This document shows positions 19,652 to 47,977 of a stretch of 64,000 nt of DNA, one piece after another. The position numbers and the translations under genes are program-made. The DNA is taken from NCBI RefSeq assembly GCF_048403405.1, contig NZ_CP183131.1; one strand, written 5' to 3'. The notes under the pieces are model-generated. The model ran no database searches and was not told the origin of the DNA. It saw only the letters and a program-made list of their open reading frames with translations. This DNA is from Escherichia coli. GTDB lineage: Bacteria > Pseudomonadota > Gammaproteobacteria > Enterobacterales > Enterobacteriaceae. Each line of letters begins with the position of its first letter. Within the stretch, counting starts at the first letter, position 1.

Positions 19652-19719
19652 GATTACCTCCATAGTTGAAGAGGAGGCGAATCATGCCCGAGAGGGCATG
19701 AACACCCCCTCAGGGTTAA
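19652..19719 (-). promoter_or_regulatory. intercistronic RNA switch (CCC trigger / SD-mimic GAGGGGG / anti-SD CCUCCUC / SD GGAGG)
   Basis: Sense UUAACCCUGAGGGGGUGUUCAUGCCCUCUCGGGCAUGAUUCGCCUCCUCUUCAACUAUGGAGGUAAUCAUG. Confidence 0.55.
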
Positions 19720-19723
19720 AGTT

Positions 19724-20002
19724 TTAGGCAGACAAAGCTGTTGGCTTCGCCTTGTTCATCTTCATTGAGTTAATGATCTTCGTCGCTTCATCAGCAAACG
19801 GGCCAGTAACTTGGATAGGCTCCCTTCTTGCGAAGGAGGCTGTCACCATCATTCTCTGGCCGTGCATCAGATGACGATACCGAGACCGCATAAGCTCAAC
19901 GTAGGCCGCAGAGTCCCCCTCCCACCCCTCAGGGGGAGAAAAGGGGCACACCGCGTCGTTACCAGGCGTTGTATCAACCTTCGAGACATCAATGACGGCC
20001 AT
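19724..20002 (-). CDS. hypothetical protein (92 aa)
   Basis: Start MAVIDVSK overlaps the end of the primase gene. Confidence 0.55.
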   Translation of the reverse strand: MAVIDVSKVDTTPGNDAVCPFSPPEGWEGDSAAYVELMRSRYRHLMHGQRMMVTASFARREPIQVTGPFADEATKIINSMKMNKAKPTALSA

Positions 20003-21716
20003 ACTCAGCTCTCCTTCTCGCAATGAAATCGCGCAGGTAGCGAGCATTCGGGAAACCGAGGCTTCCCTGACTCATCAGGACATCGTTCCAGTCAATCCCT
20101 TTCGCTCTGGGCGGGATCGGGAGTTTAGGCAGCAGGACGTACACACGAATGCCGCGCTTCTCCAGCTTGGCTTTCAGCACGTTCGCTGACTTCTCACCAG
20201 TCACAGACTTATCTTTGTCAGCCCAGATCAGTACGGTGTGAACACCTTCTGGAACCTCGAAGGACTCCATCAGGGTCGCATTGACCGTTGACCAAACCGG
20301 GATTTGAGTGACTCGATAAGCTGACAGGGCTGTTTCCAGCCCTTCTGCAACACCCAGGATACCCTCAGTCGGTTCACCGAGGCGGATGGCCGCGCCATTG
20401 ACATCCAAACCGTCAGGAATGGGCATCATCTTCTTGGCGTTGCCGACCTTGGCTTTTTTACCGTTTTGGGTGAGATAGGTGCGGTGGAGCGTTACCAGGT
20501 TGCCTTCCACATCTCGGATAGCGCAGACGATAGCCGGGAATTTCCCAACTTCATTGCCATCTTCGTCGTAGTAGGCCATAGCCGGATTGAACCGCAGACA
20601 GTCTGTTTTTTCTACTTCATCAACCTTGAACAGAAGCTCGCGGTTTTTGAAGTACAGACGCATTGGCTCAGTCACATGACTGGAGAACGGCAAACACTCG
20701 TTCCATACCTTCTCGATTTTCTCACGGAGACGAGCACTGTAAGCGCGTTCGCGCTCCATTCTCTTCTCCATTTCTTCTTGGAGCTCAAGCAGCCAAGGCT
20801 TAGGTTGTTCACGAAACATCGGAACAACTTTCGGCTTGTTTTCGCTGCTTTGCTCTTCCGGTTGTGTGGCCGCATGTTGTACTTGCGGTGCCGGAGCTTC
20901 TACCGTGCGGTTGACCACAGGGGCCGACTCAACATGGTGACTCACCGGCTCAACACCACCGTTCGAGCGAGCGCGGAACTGCGTTACCGTAGCGCCGCGA
21001 CGTTCCACCAGCCAGGTGTTGCGATGCGTTTGCATAGGTTGTTCTCTCACAACATTCCCCTGCTCGTCCTTAACTTCAACGACGACAGTTACAGGCTCGC
21101 GCCCGAGGTTTGTCATGACGATCTCATCCCCATACTTGGCTTCACTTTCACCAATGGCTCTTTCAAGATCCACGCCCCAGATGGTGCGTTCCAAACCGCT
21201 CTTGTCACGGATGAAGGCAAAGTAGCTGAGCTCGTTGTCTTCGTTATGCTCATAAGGAGCTTTACCGTGGGCAATCAGAGTACCGGCAATGGATTTTTTA
21301 CGATTCTTGGAATCGAGAACCTTGTTATTCACCTTCATAGGCTCTTGCTGAACAGGCGCTTTGGCCTGGACAGGAGCTCGTGTCGGTGCAGCGGCTTGTT
21401 GATACTGGGGTTGCTCTTTCTCAACGCCCAGATAATCACCAACCTCGCTCAGGCACTGTTTAAAGTCCCAGTTATTGAGCCACATCAGCAGCTCAAAACC
21501 ATCATGATTGGCACCGCATGTATTGCATACGCCGCCACCAGTCAGGTGGGCATCCTTGAACAGTCGGAAGCCATCTTTCCCGCCGTGGATAGGACAAGAA
21601 ACATGACGACCAGGTTTACGGAGAGCTGGTTCAAGATGGGGCGCTAGGGCCGCCAGGATGAATAGCCAGTTTCCGTTTGCAGCTTCACGAACGGTGTCAG
21701 CTTTGTAGTAAGACAT
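19989..21716 (-). CDS. pri: DNA primase (zinc-binding + Toprim domains)
   Basis: CPIHGGKDGF..GGGVCNTCG zinc motif. Toprim motifs GVAEGLETALS and IWADKDKS. ATG at 21716 follows AAGGAG. Confidence 0.85.
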   Translation of the reverse strand: MSYYKADTVREAANGNWLFILAALAPHLEPALRKPGRHVSCPIHGGKDGFRLFKDAHLTGGGVCNTCGANHDGFELLMWLNNWDFKQCLSEVGDYLGVEKEQPQYQQAAAPTRAPVQAKAPVQQEPMKVNNKVLDSKNRKKSIAGTLIAHGKAPYEHNEDNELSYFAFIRDKSGLERTIWGVDLERAIGESEAKYGDEIVMTNLGREPVTVVVEVKDEQGNVVREQPMQTHRNTWLVERRGATVTQFRARSNGGVEPVSHHVESAPVVNRTVEAPAPQVQHAATQPEEQSSENKPKVVPMFREQPKPWLLELQEEMEKRMERERAYSARLREKIEKVWNECLPFSSHVTEPMRLYFKNRELLFKVDEVEKTDCLRFNPAMAYYDEDGNEVGKFPAIVCAIRDVEGNLVTLHRTYLTQNGKKAKVGNAKKMMPIPDGLDVNGAAIRLGEPTEGILGVAEGLETALSAYRVTQIPVWSTVNATLMESFEVPEGVHTVLIWADKDKSVTGEKSANVLKAKLEKRGIRVYVLLPKLPIPPRAKGIDWNDVLMSQGSLGFPNARYLRDFIARRRAEYGRH

Positions 21717-21893
21717 AGGTTTTCTCCTTAGCGTGAACCCCAGCATCGAGGCTTCCTTAAACCCCCGTCGCCAGGGTTTTAAGGAAACCCCGACACCGGG
21801 AGAATGTGCCAAGGAGGCTCCCCAGCCGGGGAGAACTCCCCGGCGAGGGGTTTAAAAAGGTCGCCCCCGAAACGGAGGCGAATTTTGTGAATA

Positions 21894-22280
21894 TCACAAG
21901 CACAAATGAGTGCCATCTTCCGAGGCCATCATGATTGTGACATCTGCGGTTACAGGATCTGACTTAATCACAACCTCAGTGGGTTTGAAAAAGCCATCTA
22001 CAGTGGGCATGGGGTAATAAAGACGAATCTTTCCCCAATTCTTGTTGTCGGTAAAAGCGACCTTTGTTTGAGCAACACAAAGCTGCAAAAACATGAAAAG
22101 GAAGTCTTCTACCGAGTGCTTACCATCTGCACCAAATACTCCATCGACAATTGCCGGGGTCACTGCCACATTGGTCAGGAAACCAGCTTGTTTACCGATG
22201 GAAGATTGGTCCACCAGCAGACCATCATTGATGGCTTGTTGACGGATTTGGGCGAGGTCCAATTTAGCTACTTGGTTCAT
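21894..22280 (-). CDS. hypothetical protein (128 aa)
   Basis: ORF with a GGAG SD. No family recognised. Confidence 0.65.
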   Translation of the reverse strand: MNQVAKLDLAQIRQQAINDGLLVDQSSIGKQAGFLTNVAVTPAIVDGVFGADGKHSVEDFLFMFLQLCVAQTKVAFTDNKNWGKIRLYYPMPTVDGFFKPTEVVIKSDPVTADVTIMMASEDGTHLCL

Positions 22281-22344
22281 AAGGTGTACTCCAAAGTTAA
22301 TGGGTACACCTACCCCGTGCGGGGAAGTGTACCCGCATGGGTTA
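22281..22344 (-). promoter_or_regulatory. intercistronic RNA switch (arms GGGUACAC / GUGUACCC / GUACACC)
   Basis: Sense UAACCCAUGCGGGUACACUUCCCCGCACGGGGUAGGUGUACCCAUUAACUUUGGAGUACACCUUAUG. Confidence 0.6.
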
Positions 22345-22381
22345 TTGAAAGGTCACGGCCAAAGCCGAGCTTTAAGGTTCC

Positions 22382-47020: not shown

Positions 47021-47098
47021 TGCTTACTGATGGTATTCACCATGAGTAAGAAGACTTTTAAGGAGCGAGGAGAGTAGCCTCTCCTGGAGGCCACTCCC

Positions 47099-47284
47099 TC
47101 AATGGACGAACATCACCACATCGTCGTTTTGACCAATGACCCCGGTTTCTTTGGCCCACTTCACTGCTTCACTGTGCGCCTGGTAGGAGCTGGAATACAG
47201 TTTCGGATCAAATTTCACCTCGCGTCCATCAGCCAGATAGATGATGCCTGCGTGATCGTCGTAAACATGAAGATTCTGTTGCAT
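47099..47284 (-). CDS. hypothetical protein (61 aa)
   Basis: Start MQQNLHVYDD after GGGGGA. The ORF-track start at 47350 is less likely. Confidence 0.5.
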   Translation of the reverse strand: MQQNLHVYDDHAGIIYLADGREVKFDPKLYSSSYQAHSEAVKWAKETGVIGQNDDVVMFVH

Positions 47285-47400
47285 TCGACATTCCCCCTGT
47301 AGCTTGTCGTCAAAGCCAACTGACACCAGAAGACTTTGAGGACAAGCCACAGAGGCTTGACCAGAAAGAGAGGGGTTGCCCCCTCCCTTTGCGTTGACTA

Positions 47401-47493
47401 TCAGCAGTAACCGAACGATTCAGCGATTCTCACGAAAGGACGAGAGATTGCCCAACCAGTAGGGATACACAAAGCGATGATAGCGATTTCCAT
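47401..47493 (-). CDS. unannotated small hydrophobic protein (30 aa) MEIAIIALCIPTGWAISRPFVRIAESFGYC
   Basis: AGGAGCAACAUC precedes the AUG, directly after a hairpin. Confidence 0.4.
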   Translation of the reverse strand: MEIAIIALCIPTGWAISRPFVRIAESFGYC

Positions 47494-47566
47494 GATGTTG
47501 CTCCTAAGCAAAAAGGGGCAACATCCCCGTCGGGGTATGGTTGCCCCGATGGGTTTGAAAGTGTCG
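47494..47566 (-). promoter_or_regulatory. intercistronic RNA switch with terminator-like hairpin (GGGGCAAC / GUUGCCCC-U5 / GCAACAU)
   Basis: Sense AAACCCAUCGGGGCAACCAUACCCCGACGGGGAUGUUGCCCCUUUUUGCUUAGGAGCAACAUCAUG. Confidence 0.6.
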
Positions 47567-47587
47567 AAGATTACTCAGCGACAGTTA

Positions 47588-47908
47588 TTACCAAACAAGT
47601 TCCTTGCCCTTACGAAGGTAAGTCGGGATTTCGAGATAATCCCAGTCAGGTTCTTGTTTAGCGACTTCTTGAACTTGAGTTACCTCAGGTTCAACGACTG
47701 CTTTGGCTTGTTCAGCCTTGGCAGCACGTTCTTTGATGACGGCCTGTACAGACCGCATTGCAGGAACTGCGAATTTGTTCCAAAGGAACAAACCGATACG
47801 CTGGAACACTTTAGCGAGAACGATGAAGGAAAAAGCAAATGCCTTCGCGCCTACGTACAGTGCGCCCAGAGATGCAAGCAGAACTACAATGAAAGTGATG
47901 ATGTGCAT
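47588..47908 (-). CDS. membrane-anchored protein carrying an FtsZ C-terminal-peptide mimic
   Basis: N-terminal hydrophobic helices, an A/E/K/Q linker, then EPDWDYLEIPTYLRKGKE (47609-47653). Compare E. coli FtsZ ..KEPDYLDIPAFLRKQAD. Confidence 0.75.
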   Translation of the reverse strand: MHIITFIVVLLASLGALYVGAKAFAFSFIVLAKVFQRIGLFLWNKFAVPAMRSVQAVIKERAAKAEQAKAVVEPEVTQVQEVAKQEPDWDYLEIPTYLRKGKELVW

Positions 47909-47977
47909 GGTGTTGCTCCTATGTAAAAAAACAGGGGCAACACCCGAAAACCGGGAGAAGCCCCCGGCTTGGGGTTA
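47909..47977 (-). promoter_or_regulatory. leader RNA with terminator-like hairpin + U7 and SD-proximal repeat (GGUGUUGC / GCAACACC)
   Basis: Sense UUAACCCCAAGCCGGGGGCUUCUCCCGGUUUUCGGGUGUUGCCCCUGUUUUUUUACAUAGGAGCAACACCAUG. Confidence 0.55.

Follow-up and report, generated by a model that had tools for sequence, protein, structure and literature searches.

Conserved RNA elements with two predicted folds precede the start codons of a minus-strand gene block in an IncC plasmid

Introduction

Sequestration of a Shine-Dalgarno (SD) sequence with alternative pairing is a known kind of translational control, and the described system closest to the one reported here is the translational attenuator of SXT bet (Garriss, Poulin-Laprade and Burrus 2013). 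As cited in PMC4542580, this attenuator strongly hinders the expression of Bet/Exo and is also present in IncA/C plasmids, where its function was still to be investigated. Here we describe a family of RNA elements on the minus strand of a 64,000-nucleotide (nt) stretch of Escherichia coli contig NZ_CP183131.1 (assembly GCF_048403405.1; hereafter the window), where they occupy gene junctions between 19.6 and 48 kb. Immediately before bet, in a homologous SetCD/AcaCD-driven operon, stands the element at 44304-44386, which, like the SXT attenuator, is an RNA stem-loop occluding the ribosome-binding site (RBS), here a predicted hairpin covering the SD through the AUG. Unlike the SXT structure, which the literature citing it describes as a single attenuator before a single gene, the bet element of the window is one of about 30 copies. 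A further difference, as far as the SXT structure is described by the citing literature, is that a second conserved fold frees the SD here.

The initial annotation of this DNA knew of no description of such a system. The bet copy has in fact been published (PMC4542580) and a structure at vcrx089 has been noted (PMC7498323), but full-text literature searches, in which the 2013 SXT study was covered through papers citing it, uncovered no earlier mention of a multi-copy family, nor of a second fold that frees the SD. The design, modular, two-state and repeated about 30 times across a large family of conjugative elements that spread resistance, appears to be new.

The window is identical to positions 47755-111754 of Providencia huaxiensis plasmid pIMP69_000369 (NZ_CP031122.1; IncC, MOBH, MPF_F). 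IncC and SXT/R391 elements are major carriers of multidrug resistance. Nearly every gene between 19.4 and 48 kb is on the minus strand, and this block contains the hde operon, a single transcript that is required to evade restriction and CRISPR-Cas; its genes vcrx089-090 are anti-restriction genes, and ssb-bet-exo repair CRISPR-Cas breaks (Roy et al. 2020, PMC7498323). The same study predicted a structure that sequesters the vcrx089 RBS and identified the intergenic repeats rptI-IV as substrates of Bet/Exo.

Several other systems share parts of the logic described below. As in erm/cat translation attenuation, the hairpins of the present elements are mutually exclusive, a 5' segment locks a competitor arm and occupying that segment is predicted to free the SD. 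The present elements differ from erm/cat in that there is no conserved leader-peptide upstream open reading frame (uORF) and no drug-dependent stalling; the upstream frame, where present, is a full-length gene, and the module stands at about 30 junctions. In structural translational coupling (MS2 coat-replicase; repY-repZ of IncI-alpha/IncB; the small open reading frame (ORF) of mgtC-mgtB, PMC8092293) the SD is likewise hidden and nearby termination is proposed to open it; there, however, the ribosome melts the sequestering helix itself or translates through its partner. In the window, the arm that pairs with the SD (arm 2) starts about 30-35 nt 3' of the foot of the first hairpin. The reach of a ribosome from its A site is about 12 nt, and arm 2 lies beyond it, so that a relay hairpin and a competitor arm would have to pass on the event. 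Kinetically controlled starts (the MS2 maturation gene; the metastable folds of hok) also have two folds, a large barrier between them and a competence that is set during or just after synthesis, as is probable here, but those are single 5' leaders, whereas the present elements are modular, operon-internal and multi-copy. REP, BIME and ERIC sequences are, like these elements, GC-rich palindromic units in many intergenic regions. They are conserved in sequence and occur in either orientation, mostly at gene 3' ends, whereas the elements described here share almost no sequence, have one orientation and sit on the SD.

Results and Discussion

Two adjacent hairpins and an alternative fold

Gaps between minus-strand genes (RefSeq gene calls, 19.6-48 kb) are bimodal, with eight junctions overlapping or at most 14 nt long and the others at least 57 nt long. 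We folded the region from -78 to +3 relative to the start codon at the 31 non-tight junctions. The layout that had been reported for nearly every junction was recovered at 28 of the 31, together with two adjacent hairpins, and this two-hairpin fold (OFF) is the minimum free energy (MFE) structure. The arm sequences given in the six worked examples of the initial annotation were all found where it had placed them. At long junctions the order in the mRNA is (Y)UAACCC (element 0), a G-run with a variable stretch (arm 1), a C-run, a G-run, a C-rich arm (arm 2), a spacer, the SD with a variable stretch, and the AUG. Hairpin 1 of the OFF fold consists of one helix inside another. The outer is formed by the CCC of element 0 and the second G-run, the inner by the arm 1 G-run and the C-run, and what is variable in arm 1 remains in the loop. 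Hairpin 2 follows after 0-5 nt and is built from arm 2 and the stretch of SD, spacer and AUG (arm 3), so that a 30S subunit is predicted to be unable to bind.

RNAalifold, applied to a MAFFT alignment of 21 copies, independently recovered hairpin 1 and hairpin 1 only, as the variable arms fail to align. Mean column identity in this alignment is 48% and the conserved columns are the CCC/GGG runs; A-CCC is the sole sequence common to all copies. Three copies (46877-46945, 42042-42110 and 33386-33456) have near-identical 5' halves. Orientation and distance to the AUG are fixed across the elements, and on this ground, together with the restriction of conservation to CCC/GGG runs, REP/ERIC-type repeats were rejected as an identity for them. 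GNRA or UUCG loops, which had been called frequent, occur in only a few copies. The resemblance seen between arm 1 and the SD region is real but weak (longest shared word 4.1 vs 3.6 nt, P=0.002), the strong signal being that both are complementary to arm 2.

Folding z-scores against dinucleotide shuffles range from -3.4 to -6.3 (12 copies). In 21 of 28 copies folding favours the sense over the antisense strand (P=0.002), and G.U accounts for 9-13% of the predicted pairs. This strand asymmetry and these wobble pairs indicate that the structure belongs to the RNA, in agreement with the initial proposal. Searches of Rfam returned no match on the elements, either at the gathering score over the whole window or at E values up to 1 over 19-49 kb; with arms that differ between copies, this led us to reject a riboswitch or other Rfam cis-regulatory family. 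An RNA thermometer of the ROSE or fourU type was also rejected, as hairpin 2 is GC-rich, costs 7-13 kcal/mol to open at 37°C and has no weak, mismatch-rich helix.

When positions -14 to +3 were forced to be single-stranded, most copies refolded into a stem between arm 1 and arm 2 that encloses a CCCC-loop-GGGG hairpin (ON). Both the CCC element and the SD are single-stranded in this fold. The capture of arm 2 by arm 1 with release of the SD, as first suggested, thus stands as a predicted ON fold with a nested CCCC/GGGG hairpin. The OFF fold is predicted to be more stable than the ON fold by about 7-13 kcal/mol. For the bet copy, whose predicted MFE structure pairs the SD through the AUG, the opening of hairpin 2 costs about 10 kcal/mol.

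Copy-specific pairing and conservation across the family

Each element was cut at the boundary between hairpin 1 and hairpin 2, which was taken from the OFF fold only, and its 5' half was joined to the 3' halves of other copies. The gain from the ON stem was -5.2 kcal/mol for cognate halves and -2.3 kcal/mol for swapped halves (permutation P<5e-5), which bears out the claim that the arms differ between copies and yet stay complementary. The same result was obtained, each time with P<5e-5, for a Xenorhabdus IncC-like plasmid, an IncA plasmid, Aeromonas pAhD4-1 and Photobacterium pAQU1, the Bet protein of the last being about 60% identical. E. coli starts preceded by two chance hairpins showed no cognate effect in this test (P=0.42).

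Alignment of orthologous junctions showed a retention of pairing of 85% for hairpin 1, 90% for hairpin 2 and 91.5% for the ON-specific arm 1:arm 2 pairs, compared with 37-62% for slid partners; conservation at orthologous junctions had been named in advance as a point on which the family would stand or fall. The ON-specific pairs carry 15 double-sided and 56 one-sided consistent changes in these alignments. At the yfaE junction the three arms change together, from GCGUGAC/GUCGCGC/GCGUGAC in IncC to GCAUG/CAUGC/GUAUG in pAQU1, and the OFF fold there retains 93% pairing with 5 compensated pairs (changes on both sides).

Under strict two-fold criteria 18 of the 31 starts of the window were recovered, compared with 0 of 65 E. 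coli K-12 starts and 1 of 24 tra-gene starts, and four relatives each yielded 13-15 of 30-36 starts. When all SD-preceded ORF starts were scanned without annotation, the operon strand gave 23 hits and the opposite strand 2 (E. coli, 4/229). We also collected 79 Bet-homologue loci, most of them of SXT/R391 type, from species-representative genomes. Nearly all of these carry 5-20 elements in the orientation of the operon and 0-1 in the opposite one; no elements were found in the most distant of the 79 (L070, L072 and L075). In the 274 unique family members hairpin 1 has A-CCC at its foot, preceded by 8 nt that are poor in G (1-12% G). A homologous two-hairpin, three-arm element lies upstream of bet in the SXT/R391-type loci L085 and L050. 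The elements are a real, conserved and strikingly regular RNA device.

These data bear on three rival readings. The elements may be plain constitutive attenuators, with hairpin 2 keeping output low on a strongly transcribed operon, hairpin 1 serving as an insulator and the ON fold never being used. The OFF fold lies 7-13 kcal/mol below ON, as this reading expects, the barrier from OFF to ON is about 24 kcal/mol, free RNA goes OFF at realistic refolding thresholds (see below) and the bet copy has been published as a strong attenuator. We nevertheless regard it as unlikely, because it leaves unexplained why in five lineages arm 1, most of which is placed in the hairpin 1 loop, should complement the arm 2 of the same copy, why ON pairs are kept as well as hairpin 2 pairs in orthologues and why the two folds become nearly equal in energy when 3-7 nt are masked.

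GC-rich intercistronic hairpins could instead shield mRNA segments from RNases or direct processing, the pairing of the SD being a by-product. Stable hairpins do occur at every junction of what is a very long transcript, and sigma-70-like promoters are scarce in the region (3 matches vs 10.9 and 2 vs 9.6 in shuffled expectation, 19300-48300), which fits a block transcribed from a small number of activator-dependent promoters. A role in stabilisation is highly improbable, however, since the SD and AUG are always covered by hairpin 2, changes in arm 3 go with changes in arm 2, and orientation and spacing are fixed to the start codon and not to gene 3' ends.

The third of these readings places the function in the DNA, as repeats of the rptI type that are single-strand annealing substrates of Bet/Exo (Roy et al. 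2020). The copies at 46877, 42042 and 33386, with their near-identical 5' halves, are in or beside repeats that Bet/Exo recombines, and annealing could be a side use of these three. As a function of the family it is largely refuted and we give it almost no weight: most copies share only CCC/GGG runs and so cannot anneal with each other, the G.U pairs and the strand asymmetry point to RNA, and the architecture is conserved in SXT/R391, which lack rptI.

Element 0 and the setting of the fold

Masking element 0 alone (3-7 nt) reduced the mean opening cost of the start region from 8.4 to 3.3 kcal/mol; in 7 of 18 copies it fell to at most 0.6 kcal/mol. The balance between the two folds thus turns on element 0, since covering its 3-7 nt nearly equalises them. 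Masking of at least 10-12 nt removes arm 1 as a competitor and the OFF fold returns. The role of control point that had been assigned to element 0 is upheld by these calculations, but its partner in the OFF fold is the distal G-run and not arm 1 as had been supposed. A small hairpin between element 0 and arm 1 does occur as the first, early intermediate in one printed co-transcriptional trace (22280) and is present in the predicted equilibrium fold of the 25394 copy.

Direct-path barriers, which are upper bounds, are about 15.5 kcal/mol from ON to OFF and about 24 kcal/mol from OFF to ON. With a barrier of this height between the folds, the state is probably set during RNA synthesis or remodelling and not by equilibrium. 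By the same estimates a terminating ribosome cannot act by a mere shift of equilibrium, and equilibrium switching by such a ribosome was rejected on account of the high barriers and of the return of the OFF fold when at least 10 nt are masked. In these models, whichever fold forms first should outlast the mRNA. In a co-transcriptional folding walk, a ribosome holding nt 1-12 (UAA plus 9 nt) until arm 2 had been made led to the ON fold in 13-17 of 18 copies, and free RNA ended in the OFF fold in 16-18 of 18 at refolding thresholds of at least 9 kcal/mol.

The position of element 0 raises the question of a protein or small RNA, encoded by the element or the host, that would bind the conserved single-stranded (U)AACCC foot and flip all copies together. 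A-CCC is the one sequence that all copies have in common, its masking alone nearly equalises the folds and the region encodes many small proteins of unassigned function. We nonetheless consider a trans-acting factor very unlikely. No candidate was found, the CCC is paired in the OFF fold, so that a binder must act during synthesis or invade a helix, and no antisense RNA bearing GGGUU was seen, although no search for one was made.

Proposed mechanism and candidate openers

Our reading, held with moderate confidence, is that each element is a cis-acting, two-state mRNA module that would gate initiation of the next gene, its state being chosen as the RNA is made. The OFF fold would be the ground state, in which the SD is hidden, and the ON fold would be reached only when hairpin 1 is kept open while arm 2 emerges. 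The data above show both predicted folds, the copy-specific complementarity, the conservation and the hiding of the SD; the kinetic setting and the opener are what we infer here. The likeliest opener would be a ribosome or a 30S subunit placed over the G-poor stretch and the CCC element, at the 5' base of hairpin 1; where the upstream stop codon is fused to the CCC, it would be the ribosome that finishes the upstream gene. The outcome would be a strong, tunable attenuation of about 30 cistrons, and at some junctions at least translation would need a ribosome close behind the polymerase. Such logic would be that of an attenuator with a translational output. The strong attenuation exerted by the SXT bet copy, as reported where that work is cited (PMC4542580), offers an experimental precedent for the proposed mechanism.

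The upstream stop codon is fused to CCC at five junctions (ssb, exo, yfaE, 35784 and 34615), and at ten it lies 6-19 nt before the foot of hairpin 1, in four of these exactly 12 nt away and in frame. Fused stops had also been listed at 34002 and 23664. At 34002 the fusion of stop and CCC is present, but inside a GGGGG-UUAA-CCCCC hairpin that is no part of a switch. That at 23664 does read UAACCC, but hairpin 1 is closed there by a second UAACCCC 12 nt downstream. Across the family, 15 of the 148 members with a nearby ORF end (among the 274 unique members) have a stop at -3, and the distances are scattered.

Several observations weigh against the proposed mechanism, above all against termination as its general trigger. 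A stop close enough for a ribosome on it to reach hairpin 1 is present at only about half of the window's junctions and at a minority of those family-wide, and eight copies are in long leaders, preceded by a separate conserved module and with no cistron ending within 130 nt. With few stops fused and eight copies in leaders, a terminating ribosome is a possible opener at a subset only; the stop-codon relay across some 30 cistrons, which the initial annotation had envisaged, is unproven and not general. A leader peptide from a 6-codon uORF ending exactly on the UAA at 47977 of the 47908 copy was considered and rejected, the uORF being absent in L005 and L006. In the folding walk the outcome was still OFF when the ribosome left before arm 2 was made or covered less than about 12 nt. 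At the yfaE junction the ON fold retains 91% pairing with 1 compensated pair and is equalled by 185 of 500 shuffles, which is not significant taken alone. Energies throughout are nearest-neighbour predictions and the walk is a home-made heuristic. At thresholds of 4-8 kcal/mol it gave a mixed result for free RNA, 6-12 of 18 copies ending ON, so that the predicted default hinges on the actual rates.

The last result is what a folding timer would produce. Nascent RNA would then adopt the ON fold first, through an early CCC:GGG mini-hairpin and the apical hairpin, be translated briefly and relax to OFF, with upstream translation irrelevant, as in the MS2 maturation gene and hok mRNA. The barrier of about 15 kcal/mol from ON to OFF accords with this, and a timer suits leader copies that have no upstream cistron equally well. 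We judge a timer to be quite improbable, as thresholds of 9 kcal/mol or more send 16-18 of 18 copies directly to OFF, the frequent fusion of UAA/UAG to CCC in IncC is given no role, and the simulation is crude. Each of three candidates, namely a 30S subunit resting on the G-poor stretch, a folding timer and a trans-acting factor, would be compatible with every copy.

A more specific form of the preferred mechanism, gating by the fold chosen during synthesis, is offered tentatively as a possibility of some doubt. The elements would be a folding relay that reads transcription-translation coupling, the SD being licensed only if the foot of hairpin 1 is occupied by a ribosome or 30S subunit with the polymerase 35-45 nt ahead, and the fold then persisting for the life of the mRNA. 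Translation of the 28-kb anti-defence and recombination block would be confined to a particular physiological state, such as that of a newly entered recipient cell, and the arrangement would be conserved in IncA/C, SXT/R391, pAQU and their relatives.

The genes behind the elements include the operon for evasion of host defences, methyltransferase genes and many genes without an assigned function. If about 30 cistrons are indeed under one RNA device, this would account for a published puzzle, the very strong AcaCD/SetCD-driven transcription that yields little protein, and it would add a control layer over the timing with which the plasmid deploys its anti-defence genes. The device would also be a compact natural part for controlling genes within operons. 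Deletions or insertions in such seemingly empty intergenic regions would be expected to alter the expression of neighbouring genes, an effect that Roy et al. suspected for their vcrx089-090 deletion (PMC7498323).

Catalogue of the elements and their surroundings

The elements are collected in Table 1 in the order in which they would be transcribed. Two junctions of the block were tried as members and rejected: that at 38824, where a terminator is followed by an SD, and that at 21716, before the toprim gene, which has a long separate hairpin.

Table 1. Predicted switch elements and the leader-module core in the window (positions in nt; strand as given)
Feature	Position	Strand	Remarks
Switch in 5' leader of the block's first gene (47588-47908)	47906-47977	-	Arms GGGGGC.. 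/ GUGUUGCCCC / GGAGCAACACC; OFF -34 kcal/mol; U7 tract after ON hairpin
Switch before unannotated 30-codon ORF (47401-47493)	47491-47566	-	Arms GGGGCAAC / GUUGCCCC / GCAACAUC; z -5.6
Switch before AAA ATPase gene (vcrx089 homologue), after leader module	46877-46945	-	z -4.75
Switch before ssb	44929-44996	-	Upstream stop UAA fused to CCC; variant, SD in its own small hairpin beside ON-type stem
Switch before bet, between ssb and bet	44304-44386	-	Orthologue of published SXT bet translational attenuator
Switch before exo	43252-43320	-	Upstream stop UAA fused to CCCC; fold prediction
Switch before DUF3150 gene, after leader module	42042-42110	-	Fold prediction
Switch before VWA-domain gene	40680-40753	-	Fold prediction
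Switch before 37685-38224, in leader, after leader module	38222-38289	-	Fold prediction
Switch before 37094-37594	37592-37659	-	Second UAACCCU copy precedes; fold prediction
Switch before 36136-37020	37018-37092	-	z -4.7
Switch before yfaE	36068-36139	-	Upstream stop UAG fused to CCC; best case of three-arm co-variation among orthologues
Switch before 35395-35784	35782-35849	-	Upstream stop UAA fused to CCC; fold prediction
Switch before 34424-34615	34613-34676	-	Upstream stop UAA fused to CCC; variant with short SD hairpin
Switch before 34002-34355	34353-34415	-	Fold prediction
Switch before 33466-33810, after leader module	33808-33874	-	Fold prediction
Switch before 33086-33388	33386-33458	-	z -4.9
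Switch before DNA cytosine methyltransferase gene	33006-33076	-	Fold prediction
Divergent variant before 30891-31322	31320-31385	-	No CCC element, SD still paired; fails hairpin-1 criterion
Divergent variant before 30263-30817	30815-30887	-	No CCC element; OFF-fold criterion only
Switch before 29644-30030, after leader module	30028-30096	-	Arms ACGGGAG / CUCCGU / ACGGAG
Switch before PAPS-reductase-like gene (25871-28324)	28322-28387	-	Intact despite IS3 insertion just upstream
Switch before 25466-25669, in leader	25667-25727	-	Fold prediction
Switch before yfbR	25392-25462	-	UAA in all three frames precedes (UAACUAAGUAACCC)
Switch before 23664-24221	24219-24285	-	z -5.2
Switch before 22738-23589	23587-23666	-	Stop UAACCC; in-frame second UAACCCC 12 nt downstream closes hairpin 1
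Switch before small gene 22387-22533, after leader module	22531-22594	-	Fold prediction
Switch before 21894-22280	22278-22346	-	Arms GGGUACAC / GUGUACCC / GUACACC; z -5.15
Last switch, before 19412-19651	19649-19720	-	z -6.3
Leader-module core UAGCUGGUCGCCAAAAACAAACAGCA	22611-22636, 30099-30124, 33881-33906, 38295-38320, 42127-42152, 46962-46987, 48005-48030	-	7 matches vs 0 expected

Each of the seven matches to the leader-module core lies 15-45 nt upstream of a switch that has no cistron end nearby. A small hairpin precedes each core, with compensatory changes between copies (GUUCUCUUCGGAGAGC vs GUCCUCCCUGAGGGC), and the module has the look of a structured leader whose single-stranded tail is CA-rich. 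There is overlap between it and the rptI repeats recombined by Bet/Exo (PMC7498323). A leader peptide read in a frame through the module and ending on the UAG of three copies was rejected, as a 1-nt indel breaks the frame in the 38224 copy.

Extra stop triplets cluster just before hairpin 1 at 25455-25468, 33456-33470, 33076-33090, 34414-34428 and 23654-23666, and at four junctions a second in-frame UAA, fused to CCC, lies exactly 12 nt past the real stop. Intrinsic terminators were rejected as an identity for the elements, as a terminator scan flags none of them and U runs follow the ON hairpins of the first two copies only (47908 and 47493). In those two (47906-47977 and 47491-47566) the ON hairpins run directly into U tracts, CCCCUGUUUUUUU and CCCCUUUUUG respectively, and the SD-free fold would resemble an intrinsic terminator, with hairpin 1 as an anti-terminator.

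The second switch stands, with a strong SD, ahead of a minus-strand ORF of 30 codons (47401-47493; MEIAIIALCIPTGWAISRPFVRIAESFGYC). Homologues at the same place were found by tblastn in L003, L004, L005 and L009, and the ORF is probably a genuine gene for a small hydrophobic protein. The other genes of the block comprise the AAA ATPase/vcrx089-like gene, ssb, bet, exo, the DUF3150 and VWA genes, yfaE, two methyltransferase-like genes, the PAPS-reductase-like gene, yfbR, a gene for a toprim protein and numerous small genes without an assigned function. An IS3-family element on the plus strand (28475-29622), between 29644-30030 and the PAPS-reductase-like gene, splits the operon and spares the switch at 28322-28387.

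Related boxes (GCACCCCAAAAGGGCAAUUACAGCGUUUU and its relatives) are present on the minus strand at about 25822-25850, 38455-38480, 48105-48135, about 17800 and about 52700, positions that are upstream of leaders, of traN and of the RHS gene. They appear to resemble AcaCD-binding sites. Hairpins of the form GGGGG-N4-CCCCC followed by UUUCCC occur on the minus strand at about 22715-22735, 30185-30210, 33995-34020, 42235-42255 and 47365-47390. They are conserved and lie just past gene ends, 60-100 nt upstream of leader modules, the stop UAA at 34002 being in the loop of one of them, and they may act as weak terminators or as sites of processing by which the block is split into segments. The minus-strand stretch 21717-21893 holds a terminator-like hairpin, a unit resembling hairpin 1 and then a near-perfect hairpin of about 64 nt, within a fold of -50.8 kcal/mol; unlike at the other junctions, the SD is largely free.

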